Shown here: in pieces, positions 7,670 to 64,000 of the stretch
How the letters are laid out: every line of letters begins with the position of its first letter
Position numbering within the stretch: position 1 is the stretch's first letter
Assembly: GCA_964016885.1 (NCBI GenBank)
Contig: OZ024749.1
Location: 53,692,001-53,756,000, forward strand
Length of the DNA: 64,000 nucleotides
DNA from: Eledone cirrhosa
Lineage: Eukaryota
Reading direction: 5' to 3'
Position numbers and translations under genes: made by a program
The notes under the pieces: model-generated
The model's database searches: none
The model's input: the letters and a program-made list of their open reading frames with translations, nothing else
What the model was told of the DNA's origin: nothing

Positions 7670-10578
7670 CTCAGTATAACAAGTGAAAGGTCCTGAGACA
7701 CTCAGTATAATAAGGAGTTCCTTCAGCAGGAGTGAAAGGTCCTGAGACACTCAGTATAACAAGGAGTTCCTTCAACAGGAGTGAAAGTCCTGAGACACTC
7801 AGCATAACAAAGAGTTCCTTCAACAGGAGTGAAAGGTCCTGAGACACTCAGCATAACAAGGAGTTCCTTCAACAGGAGTGAAAGGTCCTGAGACACTCAG
7901 TATAATAAGGAGTTCCTTCAACAGGAGTGAAAGGTCCTGAACACTCAGCATAACAAGGAGTTCCTTCAACAGGAGTGAAAGTCCTGAGACACTCAGCATA
8001 ACAAGGAGTTCCTTCAACAGGAGTGAAAGGTCCTGAGACACTCAGTATAATAAGGAGTTCCTTCAACAGGAGTGAAAGGTCCTGAGACACTCAGCATAAC
8101 AAGGAGTTCCTTCAACAGGAGTGAAAGTCCTGAGACACTCAGCATAACAAGGAGTTCCTTCAACAGGAGTGAAAGTCCTGAGACACTCAGTATAATAAGG
8201 AGTTCCTTCAACAGGAGTGAAAGGTCCTGAGACACTCAGCATAACAAGGAGTTCCTTCAACAGGAGTGAAAGGTCCTGAGACACTCAGTATAATAAGGAG
8301 TTCCTTCAACAGGAGTGAAAGGTCCTGAGACACTCAGTATAATAAGGAGTTCCTTCAACAGGAGTGAAAGGTCCTGAGACACTCAGCATAACAAGGAGTT
8401 CCTTCAACAGGAGTGAAAGGTCCTGAGACACTCAGAAAAACAAGGAGTTCCTTCAACAGGAGTGAAAGGTCCTGAGACACTCAGCATAACAAGGAGTTCC
8501 TTCAACAGGAGTGAAAGGTCCTGAGACACTCAGTATAATAAGGAGTTCCTTCAACAGGAGTGAAAGGTCCTGAGACACTCAGTATAATAAGGAGTTCCTT
8601 CAGCAGGAGTGAAAGGTCCTGAGACACTCAGTATAACAAGGAGTTCCTTCAACAGGAGTGAAAGTCCTGAGACACTCAGCATAACAAAGAGTTCCTTCAA
8701 CAGGAGTGAAAGGTCCTGAGACACTCAGCATAACAAGGAGTTCCTTCAACAGGAGTGAAAGGTCCTGAGACACTCAGTATAATAAGGAGTTCCTTCAACA
8801 GGAGTGAAAGGTCCTGAGACACTCAGTATAATAAGGAGTTCCTTCAACAGGAGTGAAAGTCCTGAGACACTCAGCATAACAAAGAGTTCCTTCAACAGGA
8901 GTGAAAGGTCCTGAGACACTCAGCATAACAAGGAGTTCCTTCAACAGGAGTGAAAGGTCCTGAGACACTCAGTATAATAAGGAGTTCCTTCAACAGGAGT
9001 GAAAGGTCCTGAGACACTCAGTATAATAAGGAGTTCCTTCAACAGGAGTGAAAGGTCCTGAGACACTCAGCATAACAAGGAGTTCCTTCAACAGGAGTGA
9101 AAGGTCCTGAGACACTCAGAAAAACAAGGAGTTCCTTCAACAGGAGTGAAAGGTCCTGAGACACTCAGCATAACAAGGAGTTCCTTCAACAGGAGTGAAA
9201 GGTCCTGAGACACTCAGTATAATAAGGAGTTCCTTCAACAGGAGTGAAAGGTCCTGAGACACTCAGTATAATAAGGAGTTCCTTCAGCAGGAGTGAAAGG
9301 TCCTGAGACACTCAGTATAACAAGGAGTTCCTTCAACAGGAGTGAAAGTCCTGAGACACTCAGCATAACAAAGAGTTCCTTCAACAGGAGTGAAAGGTCC
9401 TGAGACACTCAGTATAACAAGGAGTTCCTTCAACAGGAGTGAAAGGTCCTGAGACACTCAGTATAACAAGGAGTTCCTTCAACAGGAGTGAAAGGTCCTG
9501 AGACACTCAGTATAACAAGGAGTTCCTTCAACAGGAGTGAAAGGTCCTGAGACACTCAGTATAACAAGGAGTTCCTTCAACAGGAGTGAAAGGTCCTGAG
9601 ACACTCAGTATAACAAGGAGTTCCTTCAACAGGAGTGAAAGGTCCTGAGACACTCAGTATAATAAGGAGTTCCTTCAACAGGAGTGAAAGGTCCTGAGAC
9701 ACTCAGCATAACAAGGAGTTCCTTCAACAGGAGTGAAAGGTCCTGAGACACTCAGTATAATAAGGAGTTCCTTCAACAGGAGTGAAAAGTCCTGAGACAC
9801 TCAGTATAATAAGGAGTTCCTTCAACAGGAGTGAAAGGTCCTGAGACACTCAGTATAATAAGGAGTTCCTTCAACAGGAGTGAAAGGTCCTGAGACACTC
9901 AGTATAATAAGGAGTTCCTTCAACAGGAGTGAAAGGTCCTGAGACACTCAGAAAAACAAGGAGTTCCTTCAACAGGAGTGAAAGGTCCTGAGATACTCAG
10001 AAAAACAAGGAGTTCCTTCAACAGGAGTGAAAGGTCCTGAGATACTCAGCATAACAAGGAGTTCCTTCAACAGGAGTGAAAGGTCCTGAGACACTCAGCA
10101 TAACAAGGAGTTCCTTCAACAGGAGTGAAAGGTCCTGAGACACTCAGCATAACAAGGAGTTCCTTCAACAGGAGTGAAAGGTCCTGAGACACTCAGTATA
10201 ATAAGGAGTTCCTTCAACAGGAGTGAAAGGTCCTGAGACACTCAGTATAATAAGGAGTTCCTTCAACAGGAGTGAAAGGTCCTGAGACACTCAGTATAAT
10301 AAGGAGTTCCTTCAACAGGAGTGAAAAGTCCTGAGACACTCAGTATAATAAGGAGTTCCTTCAACAGGAGTGAAAGGTCCTGAGACACTCAGTATAATAA
10401 GGAGTTCCTTCAACAGGAGTGAAAGGTCCTGAGACACTCAGCATAACAAGGAGTTCCTTCAACAGGAGTGAAAGGTCCTGAGACACTCAGTATAATAAGG
10501 AGTTCCTTCAACAGGAGTGAAAGGTCCTGAGACACTCAGTATAATAAGGAGTTCCTTCAACAGGAGTGAAAGGTCCTC
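7670..10578. repeat. 49-bp tandem satellite/minisatellite, about 59 copies, in macoilin intron 5
   Basis: Unit ggagtgaaaggtcctgagacactcag(t/c)ataa(t/c)aaggagttccttcaaca, head-to-tail with no spacers. Confidence 0.98.
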
Positions 10579-50503: not shown

Positions 50504-50563
50504 ATGGCCTTACACGTCCCAAAAGCACCCGGCTTCTCTTCTATGCTAAAAGAGGGTGCAAGG
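50504..50563 (+). CDS. CCT8: CCT8 (TCP-1 theta) exon 1
   Basis: MALHVPKAPGFSSMLKEGAR, the diagnostic CCT8 N-terminus; gtaagt donor. Confidence 0.97.
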
Positions 50564-53004
50564 GTAAGTTTGTTAATCGTTTTCCACTATTTTTTCCGTC
50601 CCTAAATGACAAAGATATTCTGTGATAAAAACCATGTGAGCGATCATTGTTGAGATAAATGTTTTTATTTCCTTACATTACTCATCATTCATTATAAATA
50701 ATAGTCTTCTGTAATATTGCGGCTGTCATATATATAAATGTAGACAATATTTAATTTGTTTTAAGACCTGAATATTATATTTTAAGATTTCTTGTTAAAG
50801 ATCTCCTCCCTAAATATTTCGGTGAGAAGATGCTAAGAGCTCCTTTTATTTAATATATATATTATACTCCCGAAAACTTGAGGGCCGTTGGGTGTTTTTA
50901 AGATAAAATCATTTACATATTTCTTTTTATTAAAATCCTTCATATATCATGAAGCAAAAAAAACAATGTATGATTATTATTTAAACTGTTGATTGCATTT
51001 CATTTCTGCTTCGTCATTTAATTTACACGATCCCTTCTTAAATGTTTTATAAGTTGATGAAATATTGATAATGAAATGTACATAATGAAATAATAATTTC
51101 ATTATTATTATTAAATGTACATTATGTTCCATCATATACACACTGATGTTTTCTATAAATTCTGTTGAATCTTATAATTTAAATTAACCCTACTAACAAG
51201 AACCCTCATTATTTTTGCATTTAATGTTTTACACCCAGTAATCTGAGGATTTTTCAGTCAAGATTTTATTCTGGATCCTCCTCCCATCGACATTTCTTCC
51301 GCTCTTCATTTCGTTTGACAAACATTAATCTAAATTAAGTTAGTAATAAATAAGGCAACAGAGGTAGAATTTCTACCAGAAAGAAACGTTAGCTAATCTC
51401 ATTCACATCTACATCACACCATTTTAAAAAGGAACGATACATTGGATGATGTCCTAGATACAATGAGACGTGATGGTTACGGATGGAACGACTTTTATAA
51501 TAGACAGACATATAATCCATCAGTGCTAATTTGTGGTTAAACAACCAGAATGATGTGTGATGGTGTTAAATTAACTGACAATACTCTTAAAATGTTGTGT
51601 ATGAGATGTCTTAAGGGAGCAGGCTTTGCAATGTCGCGCGGTTTTCTCGGTTGCAATCTTTGTCTTTGTCACATTTGATTTCACCGGTATCGATACAATA
51701 GAGTATTATTGATATGTAGACAATCAACTTAACTCTCTGTTCCTTTATTTAAATTTTGAGATAAAAACAAAACTGATTGGTTTTCTAATGAAATGAATCA
51801 TTGATAAGGATGAGAAATAAAACCATGCTTGATTTGTGGCTGAGAACGAGGCTTGTCTTGCCGGCAAATAAAACATTAATTAGGGCAGAGTAACAATATT
51901 TTATGTTAAAGTTTCTGAGAAATTAGCTATAAAATCATCTTTGCTGCTTTATAATAACAATAGCTACTAATAAATAAATGATCACTACTTGATAGACTCT
52001 TAAAATCGTTTCTATTTACACGTGGTTGGTTATGATGGTGAATGACTAACGTTAGGGCTGGCGGCGCCCTCCACAATGTGCGCCCCATTCTTCCAGATAT
52101 AGTAATTTCGAATTATTTTAAGCCTGCTTTTTTCACTACACCATCCACACTCATCCAGGCCAAATCATGTGACAGATCATAACACCTTACGACCCTCGTC
52201 TCGATAGCTTCGGATATTTCCACAACACTACTACGCAGCAAAGATGTATTTAATTATACAGGTTTATATAAAACTCTGGTCCTTTAAGGTTCATTTATGC
52301 ACCTTTCTGAAGTCTGGCTCAAGAACTAGTTTGAATGGGAGGGGAAAGAGGATCAAATTCACACCAGTATATTACTGGTACTTTATTTTATCAACCCCGT
52401 AAGGATGAAAGATAAAGCTAACCTTGGCGTCATTTGAACTCAGCGTAGAGGGATGTAACTAGATGCTGCAAAGCATGTCTGAGGCTCTAGCGATTACTGC
52501 CAATCCACCCCTGCCCCTCATCAAGGAAATAAAGTATTTTATAGTTTCACTGTCAAAAGTTGGTTGTTGCTACATAAATAGTGTGATTTCGATATGATCT
52601 GAATATAGTTGAAACAACCCACGAGGGCTTACTCCTGTTATCACTATTGTGACGACTGTGTAGTATTGAAGTTGTAATGTATGGAGGAACAAATAGAATA
52701 TACATGGGGAGATTACTGGAGTACATTACCAACATCATTAGACATTGTATAAATAGTAATGGTCTACCTTTTATTTCCCAATTTCTTGTTTAGCTTTAAC
52801 CCTTTTGTTACCATTAGTTTGGAGTTAAAAATATGGGTTCAGTTTCTTTAAAATGCTGTAGCATTAAATATATTTTACATTTTTACAGCTTTGTTTGATG
52901 TTCTGTAGGTTCTACATGTCATTTTAGGGGTCTGAAAAGGGAGGGATCCATTATTGATTTTTGTTTCATTTTTTATTTTAAAATTTGTCTTTTATTTTAA
53001 AAAG

Positions 53005-53095
53005 CATTATATGGGCCTTGAAGAAGCTGTCTATAGAAATATTGATGCTTGCAAAGAGATTGCAAAGACAACAAGATCTGCATATGGTCCTCATG
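53005..53095 (+). CDS. CCT8: CCT8 exon 2
   Basis: HYMGLEEAVYRNIDACKEIAKTTRSAYGPH(G). Confidence 0.96.
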
Positions 53096-53502
53096 GTAAG
53101 ATTTAATTTTTAATTTTACTTTGCTTTAAGAAAGACCAACTTCCTTCGAGTTGGTTCTTCATATAGTTGGCTTTTTCTGTGTTTATACAGTGTATATTTT
53201 ATTCTGTAATGTTGAGTAAAGGTGGGGTGACTAAATACCAGGATTTGACCGCCTGCTTCAGTTTTTGTATCAGTTACTATTGAGACGGCTGGTTCCCTTC
53301 GTCCCCAAACTGTCGTTTTCCTTTGTGGTGCTGAAATACAATCCTGCCAACAGAACAGGCATAGGCAACCTTTTTCGAGCAGTGGGCCACATAGAATATG
53401 GCTCAGCGTACCTGAATAGACGACTGTTTGCCCATGACCAGTGTAGGGTTTACTCCCTTCTTTCATTATTTAATATTTTTTCTCTCTTGTTGTATTTTAC
53501 AG

Positions 53503-53582
53503 GTCAGAATAAAATGATCATCAATCACATTGAAAAGCTGTTTGTCACTAATGATGCTGCAACTATTCTTAACGAATTATCT
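53503..53582 (+). CDS. CCT8: CCT8 exon 3
   Basis: QNKMIINHIEKLFVTNDAATILNELS (TNDAATIL chaperonin motif). Confidence 0.97.
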
Positions 53583-54027
53583 GTAAGTTCTAGAAAATAT
53601 TTTAATTTAAAATTATTTACCTTACATTATTAATGAACTTGCTGCAGGTGTGTTTATACCCCTTACCTATCTCTCTACAGATACTAACCAGCCACTAACG
53701 ATGATAATGCTGGGGCACTGACTTAAGAATTTTGAAAATTAAAGCTCATAAATTTGTACATGTGTTATATACAATTTGATCTTCTTGTGTCTTGTAGTTA
53801 TGTTCCATTTAAGTTAGCTAGGGTTGAAGGTAAATTGTTCAGTGGATAGGACCTTCTATTTTTTTAGTTAGCTTAGGTTGGAGGTAAATTGTACAGTTTC
53901 CTTTCACCATCCACATGGAATCTTTGATTTTATTGGCCTGAGGTACAGTTTGTGCAATCAACCTACATTTAGTTTTAAATAACCTGTCAAATGTTTTCAG
54001 CAATATTTTGATTTCTTATTGTTTCAG

Positions 54028-54159
54028 GTTCAACACCCAGCAGCCAAGATGTTGGTGATGGCTAGTCAACAACAAGAGCAAGAATGTGGTGATGGTACAA
54101 ATGCTGTTTTGATTCTAGCTGGAGCTTTCTTGGAGCGTGCTGAAGAACTACTTCGTATG
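54028..54159 (+). CDS. CCT8: CCT8 exon 4
   Basis: VQHPAAKMLVMASQQQEQECGDGTNAVLILAGAFLERAEELLRM (GDGTN, the theta-type P-loop). Confidence 0.97.
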
Positions 54160-54787
54160 GTAAGCTCTCTGATGAGAATTCCCCTTCAAAGCAAATCTTT
54201 TAATCTCTATTTTTTCTTTCAGATTCTTAAGTTTATCCTACATGTTCTCTCTGATTTTCTTGGGATAACATTTTGTGCTGGTGTCACAATAAAATGTACC
54301 CATTACACCATGTGAGACAGTTGGCGTTTTTTGCTTTTACGACAATCCCCCATCTTCATTGGACATTGGTCTTTTCTAGTACTCGTTTATTCTGTACTTC
54401 CTCCCTCAGTATCTCTTCTGTCTCTATCACCCAACCACCTCCCACACATTTTACCATCTTACAATAACACTTTTAGATCTTCTCAATTCCTGGGTGAAAG
54501 ACTTATTGCTCAAAACATTAAAATCTTTCACTTCTCAAAACAAATCAACTCTTCTACATATTCTGCTAGGAGTTTCAACTGATAGATAGTATCAGTAATA
54601 GAAACATGAATTTCCTTGGTCTGATTTGACAAGTTCCACCCCACTCAGTAAGGGAATGAAGCCTGGGATCTTGACAGTTGATTAAATTAATTTAATTATA
54701 TATTCACTTAATATATATTTGTTCAACAATTCCCATTATTAAATCTTTCTTTTAATGACAGGTTTTTCTACTTTGAATTTGTTGTAG

Positions 54788-54857
54788 GGTTTGTCTGTAC
54801 CTGAAGTAATTGAGGGCTATGAATCTGCTTCTGTCAAAGCTATAGAATATTTACCAG
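54788..54857 (+). CDS. CCT8: CCT8 exon 5
   Basis: GLSVPEVIEGYESASVKAIEYLP. Confidence 0.95.
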
Positions 54858-55095
54858 GTATGATTCTTCCTTGCTTTCATAGCTCCTTTTTTTTATTTGA
54901 TCCATTTATTAAATTAAATAGCCTTGTGCCTAACCTAGAAACCATTTATTACTTAAAAGTTAAAAATTTAAGCATTTTATTTTACAAAATTGAGCTGAAA
55001 TGTTAACATTTCCAACTTAATTGTTAGCCAGTAAGAAAATACATTAATTTCGATTCTCTTTCTTATCGTTTCATGAATATTATATTTTATTTCAG

Positions 55096-55224
55096 AACTT
55101 GTTGTTGGTCAAGTTAAAGATATGAGAAACAGAGATGAAGTGAAAAAGGTGATCCGTTCTGCCGTTATGAGTAAACAATATGGTAATGAAGATTTCCTGG
55201 CAGATCTCATAACTGATGCTTGTA
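55096..55224 (+). CDS. CCT8: CCT8 exon 6
   Basis: (E)LVVGQVKDMRNRDEVKKVIRSAVMSKQYGNEDFLADLITDAC. Confidence 0.95.
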
Positions 55225-55551
55225 GTAAGTATTTTCTCTTTTCTGTCTGATTTTAACATCTTCATTAATCAACATGTTATTGCCTATATATATGTATGTT
55301 TTAGATTTTTAATTCTTCAGTTAAATTCTTATCTTTTGTAAGTTATTTTAATTAAACACTTGTGTAATCGAAGGTTTGTTTAACGATTGGGACAGTTTTA
55401 AATAAAAAGGAGTGTCTTTCATTAGAAATATAGTAGCAATGTGCGTTAATCTAGGAAATGTGAGTTTTATGACATATTTATTGTGAAATATTTAATATAT
55501 GAAGAAATTGTGTATTTAATGTTATTTAATATTTTTTAAATTCAATTTCAG

Positions 55552-55613
55552 TTGGAATATTATCTACAAAGAATACTTTTAATGTTGATAATGTTCGAGT
55601 GTGCAAGATTCTG
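55552..55613 (+). CDS. CCT8: CCT8 exon 7
   Basis: (I)GILSTKNTFNVDNVRVCKIL. Confidence 0.95.
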
Positions 55614-56027
55614 GTAAGTTAGTGTTTGTTTTCGTTTCTGTATTTAGACATTTGTCTGTCATTTAATTGTAACTTGTGTGTTAGGTCTGTTATTTCATGG
55701 TTTGTAGAAAGGATATATGAGTGAATTGGCAGAGTTGTTTGAACATCATTTCATATGAAATGATTTGTGGTATTTGTTCCAGCTCTTTGCATACTCTAAG
55801 TATCTGGATGGAGTCAGCTTTGCTTTTCATCCTTTCTAGGTCGATAAAAATAGTGCCAGCCCAGTTCTGTGGTTGAATCTCTCTTTGGAAGAGATTGGCT
55901 GTGCTTAGGCTTGGGGAAAGGGGTGGGCTCTGCTAAATTAAAGTACCACGACAATGGCCTACATACATTAGAGGTAGAGCTTAAGTGTTGTAGTTCCTAC
56001 ATTGTAATGAATTCCTGTATGTTTCAG

Positions 56028-56165
56028 GGCTGTAGTATGATGAATTCAAGTGTGCTCCAGGGAATGGTTTTCAAACGTGCAGTTGAAGGCGACGTTACTA
56101 AAGCAGAGAAATGTAAAATAGCAATCTATTCCTGTCCATTAGATGCTTTGCAAACTGAAACTAAG
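56028..56165 (+). CDS. CCT8: CCT8 exon 8
   Basis: GCSMMNSSVLQGMVFKRAVEGDVTKAEKCKIAIYSCPLDALQTETK. Confidence 0.96.
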
Positions 56166-56642
56166 GTATGTTTTATTTGGTTTTTATATCTCTCTAATGA
56201 CAAAACATTTTCAATTAGGAATAAATTTCTTTTATATTTAATGTTTGGGGGTGGATCAAAATGTTTACATAAAGCTTATTTGTAATTTAGGATTTTCCAT
56301 AATCTCCCTATATTATATAACATGAGGGGTAGTTTCCACCCTCCTTTGCGTATAAAACTGGCCCAATTCTATAACAAACCTGTTTTAAAGTATTCCTGTT
56401 TCAATAGAATAAGAATGTCTTTGTTCAGTTATGTAATAAACCTCAGCTTATTAATAAGGTTAGTTTATTAAATCCAATCAAATTGTTGGTTATTGACAAA
56501 ATTAATTGAAATACATAGGTGATGTGTTTCATTAGAAATATGTTAATGAAAGGGATGACTTTTCAATTTTATTTGATTAAATTTTAAAATGTTCATTTGT
56601 TTCATCTTCCTTACAACAATGCCTCCTTCAATTTTTGATTAG

Positions 56643-56714
56643 GGAACTGTTTTGATAAAAACTGCCAAAGAGTTGATGAATTTCAGCAAAGGGGAAGAAG
56701 ACCAAATGGAAAAG
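56643..56714 (+). CDS. CCT8: CCT8 exon 9
   Basis: GTVLIKTAKELMNFSKGEEDQMEK. Confidence 0.96.
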
Positions 56715-56813
56715 GTAATTTGTCATTTCTTCTGCAGTATTTAAAGATCTTTGTTGGCTTTTATTTCAATGGTTTCTTTAAGGTGTTTCTTAAATTTCTT
56801 CTTTTTATTTCAG

Positions 56814-56987
56814 CATATTCAATCCATTGCTGAATCTGGTGTCACTGTGATTGTTAGTGGTGGCAAAGTCGGTGAACTTACTCTTCATTTTTGCAACAAA
56901 TTTAACTTGTTAGTTGTTCGTCTTTTATCCAAGTTTGATCTGAGAAGATTAGCTCGTTCTGTCTCAGCAACTGTACTTCCTAAAATT
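56814..56987 (+). CDS. CCT8: CCT8 exon 10
   Basis: HIQSIAESGVTVIVSGGKVGELTLHFCNKFNLLVVRLLSKFDLRRLARSVSATVLPKI. Confidence 0.96.
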
Positions 56988-57350
56988 GTGAGTAAACAAT
57001 TGTTCTCATTGTGCTAATAAAATAAAAAATATATGTATATATATTTAAAGCCTTAATACTTATCTTAATACAAAACTGTTAGAATGACCCGGCTGTTGTC
57101 TGATCATGTAACATTGCACTGCTTCTAAAACCACTTTAGTAACCACACACAATCCAAATTAGTTCAATCAAAGATAGTGGGACAAATTGATTGCTTGATG
57201 GTGCATTCAATCGAAATAGTTAATGTGCAGTTGTAATTGCAACTGCACATATGTGGTGCATTAGAAACTACTATGGTCCTAGTAAATGTTCTATTCCTTG
57301 GTGGTGGTTGTCTTTTGTTTAGGGTCTATATATGGTATACAATTTTTGCA

Positions 57351-57452
57351 GTCTTTATAGCTGTAGTTAGAGATACTTTTCTGACAGCTTATATAGAGAA
57401 CAGGTTACATAGGTTAACTCAGTCAACATCTCAATGGCTGGAAGCTACAAAT
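57351..57452 (+). ncRNA. Possible H/ACA snoRNA in CCT8 intron 10
   Basis: Hairpin, then AGAACA (ANANNA, 57397-57402), second hairpin, then ACA-AAT; folded by eye only. Confidence 0.35.
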
Positions 57453-57486
57453 GTGTCTGCTATATTTAAATTTTGCTATCTTGTAG

Positions 57487-57574
57487 ACTGTACCAACAAC
57501 TGAAGAAATGGGATACTGTGACCATGTTTATGTAGATGAAATTGGAGAGACTGCTGTTGTTGTATTTAAACAGG
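57487..57574 (+). CDS. CCT8: CCT8 exon 11
   Basis: TVPTTEEMGYCDHVYVDEIGETAVVVFKQ. Confidence 0.96.
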
Positions 57575-57655
57575 GTAAGACTGTATTTTATTGTTTATTT
57601 TAATAGATGAACTCACTGATTTAACTGGGTTTCTAAATATCAATTTTTGTTTTAG

Positions 57656-57771
57656 ATAAGGAAGATACTGCAGTGTCTACGATTGTTGTCAGGGGTTCAT
57701 CTGATAACATTGTAGATGACATTGAAAGATGTATTGATGATGGTGTCAACACATTTAAAGCTATGACAAAG
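57656..57771 (+). CDS. CCT8: CCT8 exon 12
   Basis: (D)KEDTAVSTIVVRGSSDNIVDDIERCIDDGVNTFKAMTK. Confidence 0.96.
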
Positions 57772-57979
57772 GTGAGAAGTTATTTATTTTTATGCCAATA
57801 TCTATCAACCCTTTTTCAGTCCACTTCTCATGGGTTGGACAGGCATTTTAGCATGCTACTAGCACTAGAGAGATTGTCTTACAGCAACATTTAAGAACCC
57901 TCTCTACCCTGTGTCAGTTTTCATTCAGATTGTGCTTTGTTTTTTCTAATTATGTGATATTCCGTGTGTTTCATTCCAG

Positions 57980-58051
57980 GATAGTAGATTGGTCGCTGGT
58001 GCCGGTGCAGTGGAAATAGAGCTGGCTAAAAGAATTACTACATTTGGCGAG
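57980..58051 (+). CDS. CCT8: CCT8 exon 13 (GC donor; remaining exons lie outside the window)
   Basis: DSRLVAGAGAVEIELAKRITTFGE followed by GAG|GCAAGT. Cumulative CDS is 1284 nt (428 aa), in frame. Confidence 0.93.
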
Positions 58052-58181
58052 GCAAGTCTAACCAATATAATTGCAATTGTATTATTCTGTGTGTAGCAGT
58101 TGTTAATAGAATAATTCCAATATAACTGTCTTGTATAATTTTTTAATTACATGGAGTTCTGTGGCTGTTAACATGTTGAAT

Positions 58182-58241
58182 ATGATGATAGTAATGTTGG
58201 ATTCCCCTACTGACTTCTAATGGAGAAATTCAACTTTCTGA
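58182..58241 (+). ncRNA. Intronic box C/D snoRNA candidate, copy 1 (coordinates box C to box D)
   Basis: C ATGATGA, guide GTTGGATTCCCCT, D' CTGA, C' ATGGAGA, D CTGA; flanking ctgtt/aacag stem; same strand as host CCT8. Confidence 0.8.
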
Positions 58242-58710
58242 TCACTGCAACAGTGTGTGTGTATTATAGCTAAGCTGATAGCCACCATATTAGTAAAGAA
58301 AATTTAAGTCATGAAACTTTTAGTTCTTTAATAGCAAACAGTTTCTAGTCTTGGGTTGGAATGATCGACTAAATCCCTATAAAGCAGTACCTCTGTCTAA
58401 TGTCTGAAACCAGTAAAAGAGTATTGTATCAAAAATAAGTAATTTCTGTAACACAACACTAATGTAGTTTTGTGTGATTAGTATTAGGAAAGGCATCCAG
58501 CCATAGAGACCTGTACGAGCAAGATGTAGACTTGACTTGGCTCATAGTATGACAACACAGCTAACTCATGCTAGCGTGGAAAATGGACTTTAAACGATGG
58601 TAGTGGTAAGATCAGTTTTTGTATGCAAAGGTTTTAAAATTGTTTTATATCTTACAATTTATTGAGGTGTTTCGATGGTTCAAAGTTTGAAATGTTGAAT
58701 TCCAAACACA

Positions 58711-59462
58711 GAATCTATAAAATGCACACAATGCAGATCCTGGGGACACAGGAGATGTAGTGGGATGGCAGGCAAACTAACAGGTAGGGAGAAATAGTTA
58801 TGCAGATGTACAGGAAAATTAGGTAGTACAAGTCGCATTGATAGACGCATTTTTCAAATGCAGGCGGGTACTATAGAAGTGGTGGATAGCTTCCGGTACC
58901 TAGGAGATCAGATTAGCATGGGAGGGGGAGGGTGTTCCGAGGCCATAGTATCTAGAATAAGGATGGGTTGGAATAAGTTGAGGGGGCTGCTGACGAAGAA
59001 GGGTTTCTCCCTACCTACGAAAGGCCAGTTATATGGTGCCTGTGTGAGGAGCGCGATGCTGCATGGTAGTGGGACATGGGCAGCAACTGCAGAGGATATG
59101 CGACAGCTGGAGAGAGATCAGGCAAGCATGCTCCGTTGGATGTGCATGAACGACCCAGCATGGATGTGTTGAGAGAAAAACTGTCTGAGAGGGATAGAAC
59201 GTAGTGTGCGAGAGAGGAGACTGCGGTGGTATGGACATGTGATGCGCATGGAGGATGACCGATGGGTGAAGAAGTGCCAGGAAATGCCAGTTGAAGGAAG
59301 ACGTGGTAGATGTAGACCACGAAAAACATGGGCGGAGGTGGTGAGAACAGATCGCTGAAGCTCACGGTGGAGATGACGAAGGACTGTGACAAGTGGAGAG
59401 ATGCTGTGCTGAATAAGACCCGTCCCACCCTTGCAAGCTGGGAAAAGCTGTCATAAAATGAT
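58711..59462 (+). mobile_element. RTE LINE 3' fragment, same subfamily as 32872-34261
   Basis: High nucleotide identity by eye to about 33470-34250. Confidence 0.93.
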
Positions 59463-60065
59463 TTTGAAAAGCGCTATAAATATTGTCTATTTTTCCATAC
59501 TAGTTGGACAAATCAGATGACCATTTTTACAGTGTGGACTGGGCACTTTTTTGTCATGTCACCAACACAAGCACTTCTAAGAATGTGTCAAACTAAAAGG
59601 GGCAAAAGTTCCTGTCATCAGAGTCTAGATATATACTTCTCTCAACCTCATGCTTTTATGGACATTAACTATATAATTAAATTTGATATCAAGCTACTAA
59701 TAAAATATGAAATGTTATGTAATTTCTGTTTGAAATAACTAGTTGTGCTGAAAGTATCTACCAGTTGCAACTCCTGGCTGAAAGAGCGACACGAAATAAT
59801 GTCTTGCTCAAGGACATAACACTTTTAATGTGGTATATTTTAAATCTTCTCTCAATACCTTTGGCTGTCCAGCTCTCCTGAGAGTTTCTTACCATATATA
59901 TATACATTTCTACGTTGTTCATAGGATAAAAACTTATGCAAATAACTTTTAAATTATCTATATTTTTACACAATAGATTATATAAGAAAGGCCTTATGGG
60001 TAACATAACACTCCCTTCTGTCGTAATTAACTCTAATAATACAACTGTTGCTAACATGTTTAAAT

Positions 60066-60125
60066 ATGATGATATATATGTTGGATTCCCCTACTGACCT
60101 CTAATGGAGAAATTCAACTTTCTGA
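60066..60125 (+). ncRNA. Box C/D snoRNA candidate, variant B (identical cores at 61210-61269, 62355-62414, 63500-63559)
   Basis: Same boxes and D' guide; external stem actgttgc/gcaacagt. Confidence 0.75.
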
Positions 60126-60673
60126 TCAGTGCAACAGTGTGTCTGTGTTTAAAAGAATTGGTTTGTTAAAAAACCTCTCCATATTCTTATTGTGGTAAAT
60201 ATATGGTCTAATCTTAGCAGAAATTATGAATATTTAAGAATGTCTGTGTGAAAGTGATAGCTACCAGTACTTATTCCAAGTGTTCTTTGAAAGAATTATC
60301 GTCATCATCATTTAATGTCTATTTTTCCATACTAGAATGGGTTAGACAAATCGGATGACCGTTTTTACAGTGTGGACTGGACATTTTTTGTCATGTCACC
60401 AACACAAGCACTTCTAAGAATGTGTCAAACTAAAAGGGGCAAAAGTTCCTGTCATCAGATTCTAGATATATATTTCTCTCAACCTCATGCTTTTATGGAC
60501 ATTATATAATTAAATTTTATATCAAGCTACTAATAAAATATGAAATGTTATGTAATTTCTGTTGGAAATAACTAGTTGTCTAAATAGTTATCGAGTAAAA
60601 ACAACATAATCTAACAATTATTGATAGATATAGTATTTTTGTTTATTGATCTGTGGTTGTTAACATGTTGAAT

Positions 60674-60733
60674 ATGATGATAGTAATGTTGGATTCCCCT
60701 ACTGACTTCTAATGGAGAAAATCAACTTTCTGA
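60674..60733 (+). ncRNA. Box C/D snoRNA candidate, variant A (identical cores at 61819-61878, 62964-63023)
   Basis: Same boxes and D' guide; external stem gttaacat/gtgttaac. Confidence 0.75.
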
Positions 60734-63700
60734 TTACTGTGTTAACATTTCTACCCTACTAGAGTAGGAATGTGAAAGCTAGGTATAATGCCTCTTTGAT
60801 AGGAATCGACAAAACCTTATTCCCTTACAAAGTGGAGAGGAGCTTGTCAAGTCAGACCAAGGAAACAATGTTTCCATTGGTCTTTCCATTGCTGAAAGTA
60901 TCTACCAGTTGCAACTCCTGGCTGAAAGAGCAACACGAAATAATGTCTTGCTCAAGGACATAACACTTTTAATGTGGTATATTTTAAATCTTCTCTCAAT
61001 ACCTTTGGCTGTCCAGCTCTCCTGAGAGTTTCTTACCATATATATATATATATTTCTACGTTGTTCATGAGAAAAACTTATGCAAATAACTTTTAAATTA
61101 TCTATATTTTTACACAATAGATTATATAAGAAAGGCCTTACGTGTAACATAACACTCCCTTCTGTCGTAATTAACTCTAATAATACAACTGTTGCTAACA
61201 TGTTTAAATATGATGATATATATGTTGGATTCCCCTACTGACCTCTAATGGAGAAATTCAACTTTCTGATCAGTGCAACAGTGTGTCTGTGTTTAAAAGA
61301 ATTGGTTTGTTAAACCTCTCGATATTCTTATTGTGGTAAATATATGGTCTAATCTTAGCAGAAATTATGAATATTTAAGAATGTCTGTGTGAAAGTGATA
61401 GCTACCAGTACTTATTCCAGGTGTTCTTTGAAAGAATTATCGTCATCATCATTTAATGTCTATTTTTCCATACTAGAATGGGTTAGACAAATCGGATGAC
61501 CGTTTTTACAGTGTGGACTGGACATTTTTTGTCATGTCACCAACACAAGCACTTCTAAGAATGTGTCAAACTAAAAGGGGCAAAAGTTCCTGTCATCAGA
61601 GTCTAGATATATACTTCTCTCAACCTCATGCTTTTATGGACATTAACTATATAATTAAATTTGATATCAAGCTACTAATAAAATATGAAATGTTATGTAA
61701 TTTCTGTTTGAAATAACTAGTTGTCTTATTAGTTATCGAGTAAAAACAACATAATCTAACAATTATTGATAGATATAGTATTTTTGATTATTGATCTGTG
61801 GCTGTTAACATGTTGAATATGATGATAGTAATGTTGGATTCCCCTACTGACTTCTAATGGAGAAAATCAACTTTCTGATTACTGTGTTAACATTTCTACC
61901 CTACTAGAGTAGGAATGTGAAAGCTAGGTATAATGCCTCTTTGATAGGAATCGACAAAACCTTATTCCCTTACAAAGTGGAGAGGAGCTTGTCAAGTCAG
62001 ACCAAGGAAACAATGTTTCCATTGGTCTTTCCATTGCTGAAAGTATCTACCAGTTGCAACTCCTGGCTGAAAGAGCAACACGAAATAATGTCTTGCTCAA
62101 GGACATAACACTTTTAATGTGGTATATTTTAAATCTTCTCTCAATACCTTTGGCTGTCCAGCTCTCCTGGGAGTTTCTTACCATATATATATATATATTT
62201 CTACGTTGTTCATGAGAAAAACTTATGCAAATAACTTTTAAATTATCTATATTTTTACACAATAGATTATATAAGAAAGGCCTTACGTGTAACATAACAC
62301 TCCCTTCTGTCGTAATTAACTCTAATAATACAACTGTTGCTAACATGTTTAAATATGATGATATATATGTTGGATTCCCCTACTGACCTCTAATGGAGAA
62401 ATTCAACTTTCTGATCAGTGCAACAGTGTGTCTGTGTTTAAAAGAATTGGTTTGTTAAACCTCTCGATATTCTTATTGTGGTAAATATATGGTCTAATCT
62501 TAGCAGAAATTATGAATATTTAAGAATGTCTGTGTGAAAGTGATAGCTACCAGTACTTATTCCAGGTGTTCTTTGAAAGAATTATCGTCATCATCATTTA
62601 ATGTCTATTTTTCCATACTAGAATGGGTTAGACAAATCGGATGACCGTTTTTACAGTGTGGACTGGACATTTTTTGTCATGTCACCAACACAAGCACTTC
62701 TAAGAATGTGTCAAACTAAAAGGGGCAAAAGTTCCTGTCATCAGAGTCTAGATATATACTTCTCTCAACCTCATGCTTTTATGGACATTAACTATATAAT
62801 TAAATTTGATATCAAGCTACTAATAAAATATGAAATGTTATGTAATTTCTGTTTGAAATAACTAGTTGTCTTATTAGTTATCGAGTAAAAACAACATAAT
62901 CTAACAATTATTGATAGATATAGTATTTTTGATTATTGATCTGTGGCTGTTAACATGTTGAATATGATGATAGTAATGTTGGATTCCCCTACTGACTTCT
63001 AATGGAGAAAATCAACTTTCTGATTACTGTGTTAACATTTCTTACCTACTAGAGTAGGAATGTGAAAGCTAGGTATAATGCCTCTTTGATAGGAATCGAC
63101 AAAACCATATTCCCTTACGAAGTGGAGGGGAGCTTGTCAAGTCAGACCAAGGAAACAATGTTTCCATTGGTCTTTCCATTGCTGAAAGTATCTACCAGTT
63201 GCAACTCCTGGCTGAAAGAGCAACACGAAATAATGTCTTGCTCAAGGACATAACACTTTTAATGTGGTATATTTTAAATCTTCTCTCAATACCTTTGGCT
63301 GTCCAGCTCTCCTGGGAGTTTCTTACCATATATATATATATTTCTACGTTGTTCATAGGAGAAAAACTTATGCAAATAACTTTTAAATTATCTATATTTT
63401 TACACAATAGATTATATAAGAAAGGCCTTATGGGTAACATAACACTCCCTTCTGTCGTAATTAACTCTAATAATACAACTGTTGCTAACATGTTTAAATA
63501 TGATGATATATATGTTGGATTCCCCTACTGACCTCTAATGGAGAAATTCAACTTTCTGATCAGTGCAACAGTGTGTCTGTGTTTAAAAGAATTGGTTTGT
63601 TAAAAAACCTCTCCATATTCTTATTGTGGTAAATATATGGTCTAATCTTAGCAGAAATTATGAATATTTAAGAATGTCTGTGTGAAAGTGATAGCTACCA

Positions 63701-64000
63701 GTACTTATTCCAAGTGTTCTTTGAAAGAATTATCGTCATCATCATTTAATGTCTATTTTTCCATACTAGAATGGGTTAGACAAATCGGATGACCGTTTTT
63801 ACATTGTGGACTGGACATTTTTTGTCATGTCACCAACACAAGCACTTCTAAGAATGTGTCAAACTAAAAGGGGCAAAAGTTCCTGTCATCAGATTCTAGA
63901 TATATATTTCTCTCAACCTCATGCTTTTATGGACATTAACTATATAATTAAATTTTATATCAAGCTACTAATAAAATATGAAATGTTATGTAATTTCTGT

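Follow-up and report, generated by a model that had tools for sequence, protein, structure and literature searches.

The window analyzed here is a 64,000-nt stretch of the octopod Eledone cirrhosa genome (GenBank assembly GCA_964016885.1, contig OZ024749.1, positions 53,692,001 to 53,756,000, forward strand). It contains exons 1-13 of CCT8, the gene for TCP-1 theta, whose intron 13 carries a series of small nucleolar RNA (snoRNA) copies of the box C/D class. Both the gene and the series run past the window end, where positions are given as extended coordinates (contig position minus 53692000), which continue the window numbering past 64000. The gene parts and the copies are as follows.

50504..58051, + strand: CCT8 (TCP-1 theta) exons 1-13, open reading frame
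58052..64000, ending at extended coordinate 65377, + strand: CCT8 intron 13, GC-AG, 7,326 nt
58182..58241, + strand: copy S1, 130 nt from the 5' splice site, with an A-type 5' arm, a B-like 3' arm and a weak stem
58196..58213, + strand: D' guide and box D' of S1, the same in all 11 copies and complementary to the 28S ribosomal RNA (rRNA) of the species
60066..60125, + strand: copy B1
60674..60733, + strand: copy A1, SNORD101 match of 25.7 bits (cut-off 47)
61210..61269, + strand: copy B2
61819..61878, + strand: copy A2
62355..62414, + strand: copy B3
62964..63023, + strand: copy A3
63500..63559, + strand: copy B4
Extended 64112-64171, + strand: copy A4, past the window end
Extended 64650-64709, + strand: copy B5, past the window end
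Extended 64880-64939, + strand: copy S2, past the window end, ending 438 nt before the 3' splice site
Extended 65378-66581, + strand: CCT8 exons 14-17, open reading frame, past the window end

A search of the E. cirrhosa genome with the first unit returned 11 matches, all inside 6.8 kb of one contig. All are sense box C/D units in CCT8 intron 13, eight in the window and three past its end, in the order S1, B, A, B, A, B, A, B, A, B, S2. Each copy is exactly 60 nt long from box C (ATGATGA) to box D (CTGA). Boxes C, D' and D are perfect and the guide is identical in 11/11 copies; box C' is degenerate. The spacers between the copies measure 1,824 nt, then alternately about 549 and 476 nt, and finally 170 nt. 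The S-type copies, a third type, flank the array at each end, and the B copies are all internal and distinguishable by sequence from the outer ones, with B-specific bases at core positions 10-12 and 34. An original prediction, made from the letters of the window, had described eight 60-nt units sense to CCT8, with invariant boxes and an invariant D' guide. We confirmed the eight units at their positions and found boxes C, D' and D and the guide unchanged in all 11 copies; the predicted "at least 8 copies" holds, but the array passes the window end and comprises 11.

CCT8 has 17 exons in an open reading frame. Exon 10 matches the Pfam domain Cpn60_TCP1 and shows 88% identity to a protein carrying the name Octopus sinensis CCT8, and the match of exon 13 covers residues 405-428 of human CCT8. 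All introns are GT-AG except intron 13, which is 7,326 nt long, whereas the other 15 span 81-2,441 nt. The GC donor (58052-58053) is thus unique to the array-bearing intron among the introns of this gene. A spliced CCT8 contig of run X4 joins exon 13 directly to exon 14, and the placement of the copies in one intron stands for all 11. X4 is treated as RNA-like only on the strength of this spliced contig, and pre-mRNA or carried-over DNA could account for its intron contigs. In the other 15 CCT8 introns, no further snoRNA with rRNA pairing was found. The start of intron 4 (54159-54237) gives a weak C/D-like Rfam match (SNORD12, 19.1 bits, E 8.8) and contains a guide-like run of pyrimidines, for which no rRNA pairing was found; the match is probably due to chance.

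Guide, 28S target and family

The identity of the copies as box C/D guides is borne out by their boxes, a 28S antisense element and a closing stem. The D' guide forms a 13-bp duplex with two G-U pairs in 2/2 ribosomal DNA (rDNA) units of the species, and an equal pairing score against mature rRNA was reached by 2 of 300 shuffled guides. While the original prediction was right about the 13 bp, it counted one G-U pair and gave the target letters as AGGGG...; the 28S target of E. cirrhosa reads GGGGGAATCCGAC in both rDNA units. The D'+5 rule points to the fourth base of this target, the same position that the original prediction had named. The predicted methylated base is the fourth G of the GGGGGAAUCC stretch in 28S. 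A second guide at box D was considered and rejected, as even the best pairings there are weak or contain many G-U pairs, and they vary from type to type. A 13-nt stretch complementary to the guide with one G-U pair also lies in the rDNA spacer downstream of 28S, repeated three times at a spacing of about 710 bp (L007:4539, 5245, 5967), probably by chance.

No Rfam family matched the window at its gathering threshold. The best match below threshold was snoR60 for S1 (27.9 bits against 40), and SNORD100 (25.9 against 58) and SNORD101 (25.7 against 47) also scored below their cut-offs. snoR60 (RF00339) and SNORD101 (RF00186) belong to one clan, CL00074, and their guide core stands in a common register with that of the octopod copies. 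Relatives with the same guide in contigs of other eukaryotes likewise reach only 27-34 bits. Because both the octopod copies and these relatives score low, we file the RNA as one that, judged from its guide, works like SNORD101/snoR60 and not as a formal Rfam member. It resembles these two in the D' guide core, its register and the large-subunit site, and differs from them in falling below both cut-offs, in its CCT8 host and in the presence of 11 copies in one intron.

The 28S target lies just before position 2131 of the large-subunit (LSU) model, near where Arabidopsis Gm2125 is placed. From the register and the model position, we infer that the octopod G is the nucleotide of human Gm3627. 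AtsnoR60 has been assigned to 25S Gm2125, given as equivalent to human Gm3627, and the site is modified in both Arabidopsis and human according to the same report (PMC8583080). It is also modified in mouse, where Snord101 is reported to guide 28S-G3283 and its knockdown abolishes the mark (PMC11863803).

A pattern made of the guide and box D' gave 12 matches in the genome, 11 of them in CCT8 intron 13, and the reversed-pattern control gave 0. The twelfth match has no box C upstream and was rejected as a copy. Neither the unit search nor this pattern found a second locus for the guide in the E. cirrhosa genome, both being searches that score the best candidates only and that a diverged paralogue would escape. 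As no other guide locus was found and the site is modified in Arabidopsis, human and mouse, any guide activity should come from the CCT8 intron. The guide is invariant in 14/14 aligned sequences, 10 of them from other organisms, all collected with a guide-based pattern.

Array units and closing stems

The copies between S1 and S2 belong to a tandem array, preceded by a retroelement piece.

58740..59450, + strand: 3' piece of a presumably LINE-like (long interspersed nuclear element-like) retroelement, with stops
59481..59745, + strand: partial array unit without an A copy at the 5' edge of the array, 92-96% identical by self-BLAST to part of a full unit
59746..64000, continuing past the window, + strand: tandem array of four full units and a truncated fifth

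The predicted alternation of A and B in a unit of about 1.145 kb was recovered, with full units of 1,144-1,148 bp and nine B and A copies inside the array. The units differ by 0.5-1.8% (6-21 substitutions between full units). Unit 1 resembles unit 4 and unit 2 resembles unit 3, a mosaic that fits unequal crossover or conversion. Pieces of dispersed repeats are present in the spacers. The flanks of A and B do not align to each other, and by this divergence the two types look older than the young tandem units. The array is a recent tandem amplification of what was likely an older pair of guide genes. S1 and S2 each join a 5' arm of type A to a B-like 3' arm; they are recombinants or else the ancestral form. 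The mosaic first proposed for the copy at 58182 is right for the 5' arm, and its 3' half is better called B-like than B-type.

In the closing stems, the arms of A paired with A give -12.5 kcal/mol and those of B with B give -12.3 kcal/mol, whereas crossed A/B arms give -7.5 and -5.3 kcal/mol. A value of -12 kcal/mol is reached by 3.7% of random intron pairs. The stems of the outer copies are weaker (S1 -7.1, S2 -9.4 kcal/mol), and random intron pairs often reach these values. Within A and within B, each arm thus finds its best partner in its own type, so that the inner copies have better stems than the outer ones; the external stem described for A and for B is strong in these two and weaker in S1 and S2.

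The pattern of changes gives modest signs of selection on the copies, to which conversion could contribute. A and B cores show five differences, none of them in the 36 box and guide positions (p=0.008 with five independent sites, about 0.06 by our own arithmetic when they are treated as three events). Of the 30 sites that vary among the units, none is in a core (3.1 expected, p=0.04) and one is in the cores and stems taken together (5.2 expected, p=0.01).

The retroelement piece, which we take to be LINE-like from its translation, has no Pfam match, and the summed depth of the run contigs over it is very high. Elsewhere at the locus, a 49-bp minisatellite of about 59 copies (96% match) occupies 7682-10577, and the intronless gene MFAP1 lies just downstream of CCT8 and convergent with it (L001:6494-7807, - strand).

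Several copies per intron elsewhere

As a control, nine other C/D families were searched in the E. cirrhosa genome, and three of the nine form local clusters: U14 with six copies in 2.5 kb, SNORD31 with five in 3.7 kb and SNORD18 with four. SNORD15 gave two unlinked matches and SNORD74 weak scattered matches only, and no match was found in this genome for SNORD36, SNORD24, snR60/Z15 or SNORD21. The six U14/SNORD14-like copies (contig C5 33003688-33006232, - strand) lie in an apparently non-coding host and have at least two closing-stem variants; two of them are separated by only about 130 nt, in which no exon is evident. The five SNORD31 copies (L015:3356-7089, contig C6) include a recent tandem duplication of about 700 bp, with a further truncated copy upstream, and their host also looks non-coding.

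The SNORD18 cluster is hosted by RPL4 (L013:5529-9794, contig C4). The exons flanking one of its introns match uL4 279-305 and 308-343, so that no coding exon lies between them, and this intron holds two SNORD18 Rfam matches and two decayed-looking copies. The two intact copies are separated by a transposon-like insert. One of the SNORD18 copies in this intron duplicates the copy of the preceding intron (188 nt at 94%).

Metagenome contigs were also searched. A strict pattern returned 0 loci, and a looser one returned 67, none of which matches CCT8. Most of the 67 lack the layout of the family and are matches by chance; nine of plausible layout were taken to Rfam. On one eukaryote contig (L064:1935-4910), three SNORD101-like copies share a single 2,976-nt intron of eIF5, whose flanking exons match human 304-355 and 358-396. 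The cores of these three copies are 96-99% alike, and their flanks are 88% alike or unalignable. There may be a cryptic exon of 89 nt between copies 2 and 3; none was found between copies 1 and 2. Three other contigs carry two copies each in separate introns of one gene, presumably a DEAD-box helicase gene by its translation. The hosts of SNORD101-like relatives thus include eIF5, the DEAD-box helicase gene (one copy per intron) and others, and both layouts, shared intron and separate introns, occur in this family.

Possible release of guides from a shared intron

In animals, an intronic snoRNA is described as being mostly the only one in its intron and as released through debranching and trimming (PMC11028025), and two in one intron can yield a long non-coding RNA with snoRNA ends (sno-lncRNA; PMC11028025, PMC4234469). 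The processing puzzle of a polycistronic intronic array, raised by the original prediction, stands, as the copies share one intron. The reading we favor, and give about an even chance, is that single guides are freed by cuts in the spacers between the copies, after a recent amplification. Each copy would fold on its own stem and bind the core proteins without the help of splicing. An endonuclease would then nick the excised intron in the 170-1,824-nt spacers, and exonucleases would trim the pieces to each protected ribonucleoprotein (snoRNP) of about 70 nt, with partly trimmed snoRNA-ended long RNAs as by-products. What the youngest units add to the dose may be neutral. We infer the cut and its nuclease, and likewise the small RNA and the methylation.

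Long external stems are reported to allow assembly independent of splicing, and human C/D genes to lie preferentially some 50 nt upstream of the branch point (PMC5519232). No CCT8 copy is near that preferred position; the last one, S2, ends 438 nt before the acceptor. A route of endonucleolytic release with XendoU is described in Xenopus (PMC10557570). We count the recurrence of the layout in the RPL4 and eIF5 introns in favor of cuts in the spacers. Intron 13 contains no B-box motif, that is, no sign of an RNA polymerase III promoter of its own. Cleavage at poly(A) signals was considered and set aside, as one AATAAA per unit is about what chance gives in an AT-rich intron and is no evidence for such cleavage.

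Several points weigh against release by cuts in the spacers. No cleavage signal common to the spacers was found. Only 1/29 folded windows stood out (z -3.7), and it lies in the A-to-B spacer and is partly a dispersed repeat; the B-to-A spacer has no structured window, and the 25 longest of the 60 inverted pairs were only AT-rich runs. The decayed-looking copies of the RPL4 intron show that extra copies can die. The human product of paired intronic snoRNAs is described as a sno-lncRNA (PMC4234469, PMC11028025), and Drosophila C/D genes are reported as one per intron (PMC3089462). The tests for selection are modest, with windows chosen post hoc, and gene conversion could mimic their result; as the units are young, intact cores are largely expected.

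If exonucleases act alone, trimming would proceed to the outermost snoRNPs and leave a sno-lncRNA of up to about 6.8 kb, bounded by S1 and S2 and holding as many as nine internal modules as passengers in a mostly neutral array. Free guides would then arise only when a single copy assembles, or the long RNA itself would guide. We regard this outcome, the main rival, as possible but on the doubtful side. It is the documented animal default for two snoRNAs per intron; the array is young and rich in repeats, and local snoRNA duplication is common in this genome, as the U14, SNORD31 and SNORD18 clusters illustrate. X4 has contigs over the array and over the intron's 3' part, though contigs show neither ends nor level. 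The inner A and B copies, however, have the stronger stems and fewer changes than expected, and the middle eIF5 copy of L064 keeps a near-identical core despite unalignable flanks. The original prediction had also offered hidden non-coding exons, which minor, decay-destined splice forms would place between the copies. The donor of intron 13 is weak, contigs drop rare forms, and snoRNA hosts with decay-sensitive splice variants have been reported (PMC4233243). Yet in the array donor-like sites precede acceptor-like ones, with no acceptor-then-donor pair between neighboring copies, and there is no AG|GT site with a good score in both roles. By a matrix built from 16 introns only, the 7.3 kb of intron 13 contain 14 donor-like and 8 acceptor-like sites; in 6.5 kb of the other introns the numbers are 18 and 20. 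Exon 13 is joined directly to exon 14 in X4, and among the joints listed none leads from an exon into the array. This proposal is unsupported and we think it improbable, rare splice forms being where it could still apply. Because hidden exons lack support, stem-driven assembly with cuts in the spacers is favored over the sno-lncRNA and the other alternatives.

The two remaining explanations concern whether the copies act or exist at all. All of them could be silent, decaying duplicates, the site being unmethylated or served by a diverged gene elsewhere. Searches by best candidates would miss such a paralogue, and decayed copies are present at the RPL4 locus; against this, perfect boxes C, D' and D with an identical guide in every one of the 11 copies, and the invariance of the guide across the alignment gathered with it, make silence a slim prospect. 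An assembly artefact made from one or two real copies is the least credible account. Assembly easily goes wrong over tandem units that are nearly identical, and X1-X3 may be runs of the very sample that was assembled. The full units nevertheless differ by their 6-21 substitutions in a mosaic pattern, and in 3/3 runs of one sample the contigs of the units are 3.9-7.5 times as deep as those of the unique flanks; this depth is no strict copy number but is in line with the 4-5 assembled copies. Run contigs carry alleles of units 2 and 3, and a contig of X4 spans the deletion joint of unit 5. The raised depth, the unit-specific alleles and the crossed joint support the multi-copy DNA as real. Two restriction-site-associated DNA sequencing (RAD-seq) runs of another study gave about three reads on a B copy (X5) and none (X6), numbers too low for copy number.

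Among known systems, the SNORD115/SNORD116 and DmSnR60 clusters resemble the CCT8 array in local tandem duplication of C/D genes within one transcription unit. The SNORD115/116 copies mostly lie each in its own intron, and intronic snoRNA gene clusters reportedly occur in rice. DmSnR60 is likewise described with each copy in its own intron (PMC1821038), whereas no intervening exons were found in the octopod array. Mammalian sno-lncRNAs (the Prader-Willi region, SLERT, LNC-SNO49AB) share with it more than one snoRNA per intron, but are described as pairs (PMC4234469, PMC11028025), whereas the octopod intron holds nine further copies between its ends. Its copies also form one rRNA-guide family in a protein-coding housekeeping host and are known here from DNA. 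Drosophila intronic clusters, too, place several snoRNA genes in one intron, but those described are H/ACA (PMC3089462), and the octopod ones are C/D genes in a young tandem array with two alternating stem variants. We found no report of the CCT8 locus or of a comparable C/D array in one animal intron, in a search that left most subscription papers and supplements outside. The snoRNA family and its target are already known; the arrangement of eleven copies in one intron is, by that search, a new form of a known layout.

The end-trimming model leaves room for a single guide in each intron and makes a sno-lncRNA of a pair, and the eleven-copy intron departs from that layout. No locus other than these eleven copies in one intron was found for the guide, whose rRNA target is deeply conserved along with it, and the array thus bears on whether animals can release inner C/D copies. 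The shared-intron layout at two further loci suggests that the answer extends beyond CCT8. Tentatively, and with more doubt than confidence, we propose that octopods and some invertebrate-like animals routinely run C/D polycistrons in single housekeeping introns with endonucleolytic release. If this is true, the one-per-intron rule would not bind these animals, with the CCT8 intron as an extreme case, and two stem types that do not cross-pair would insulate neighboring copies. If no cut occurs, the intron would instead give an RNA of about 6.8 kb with eleven snoRNPs, far beyond the two-ended sno-lncRNAs.

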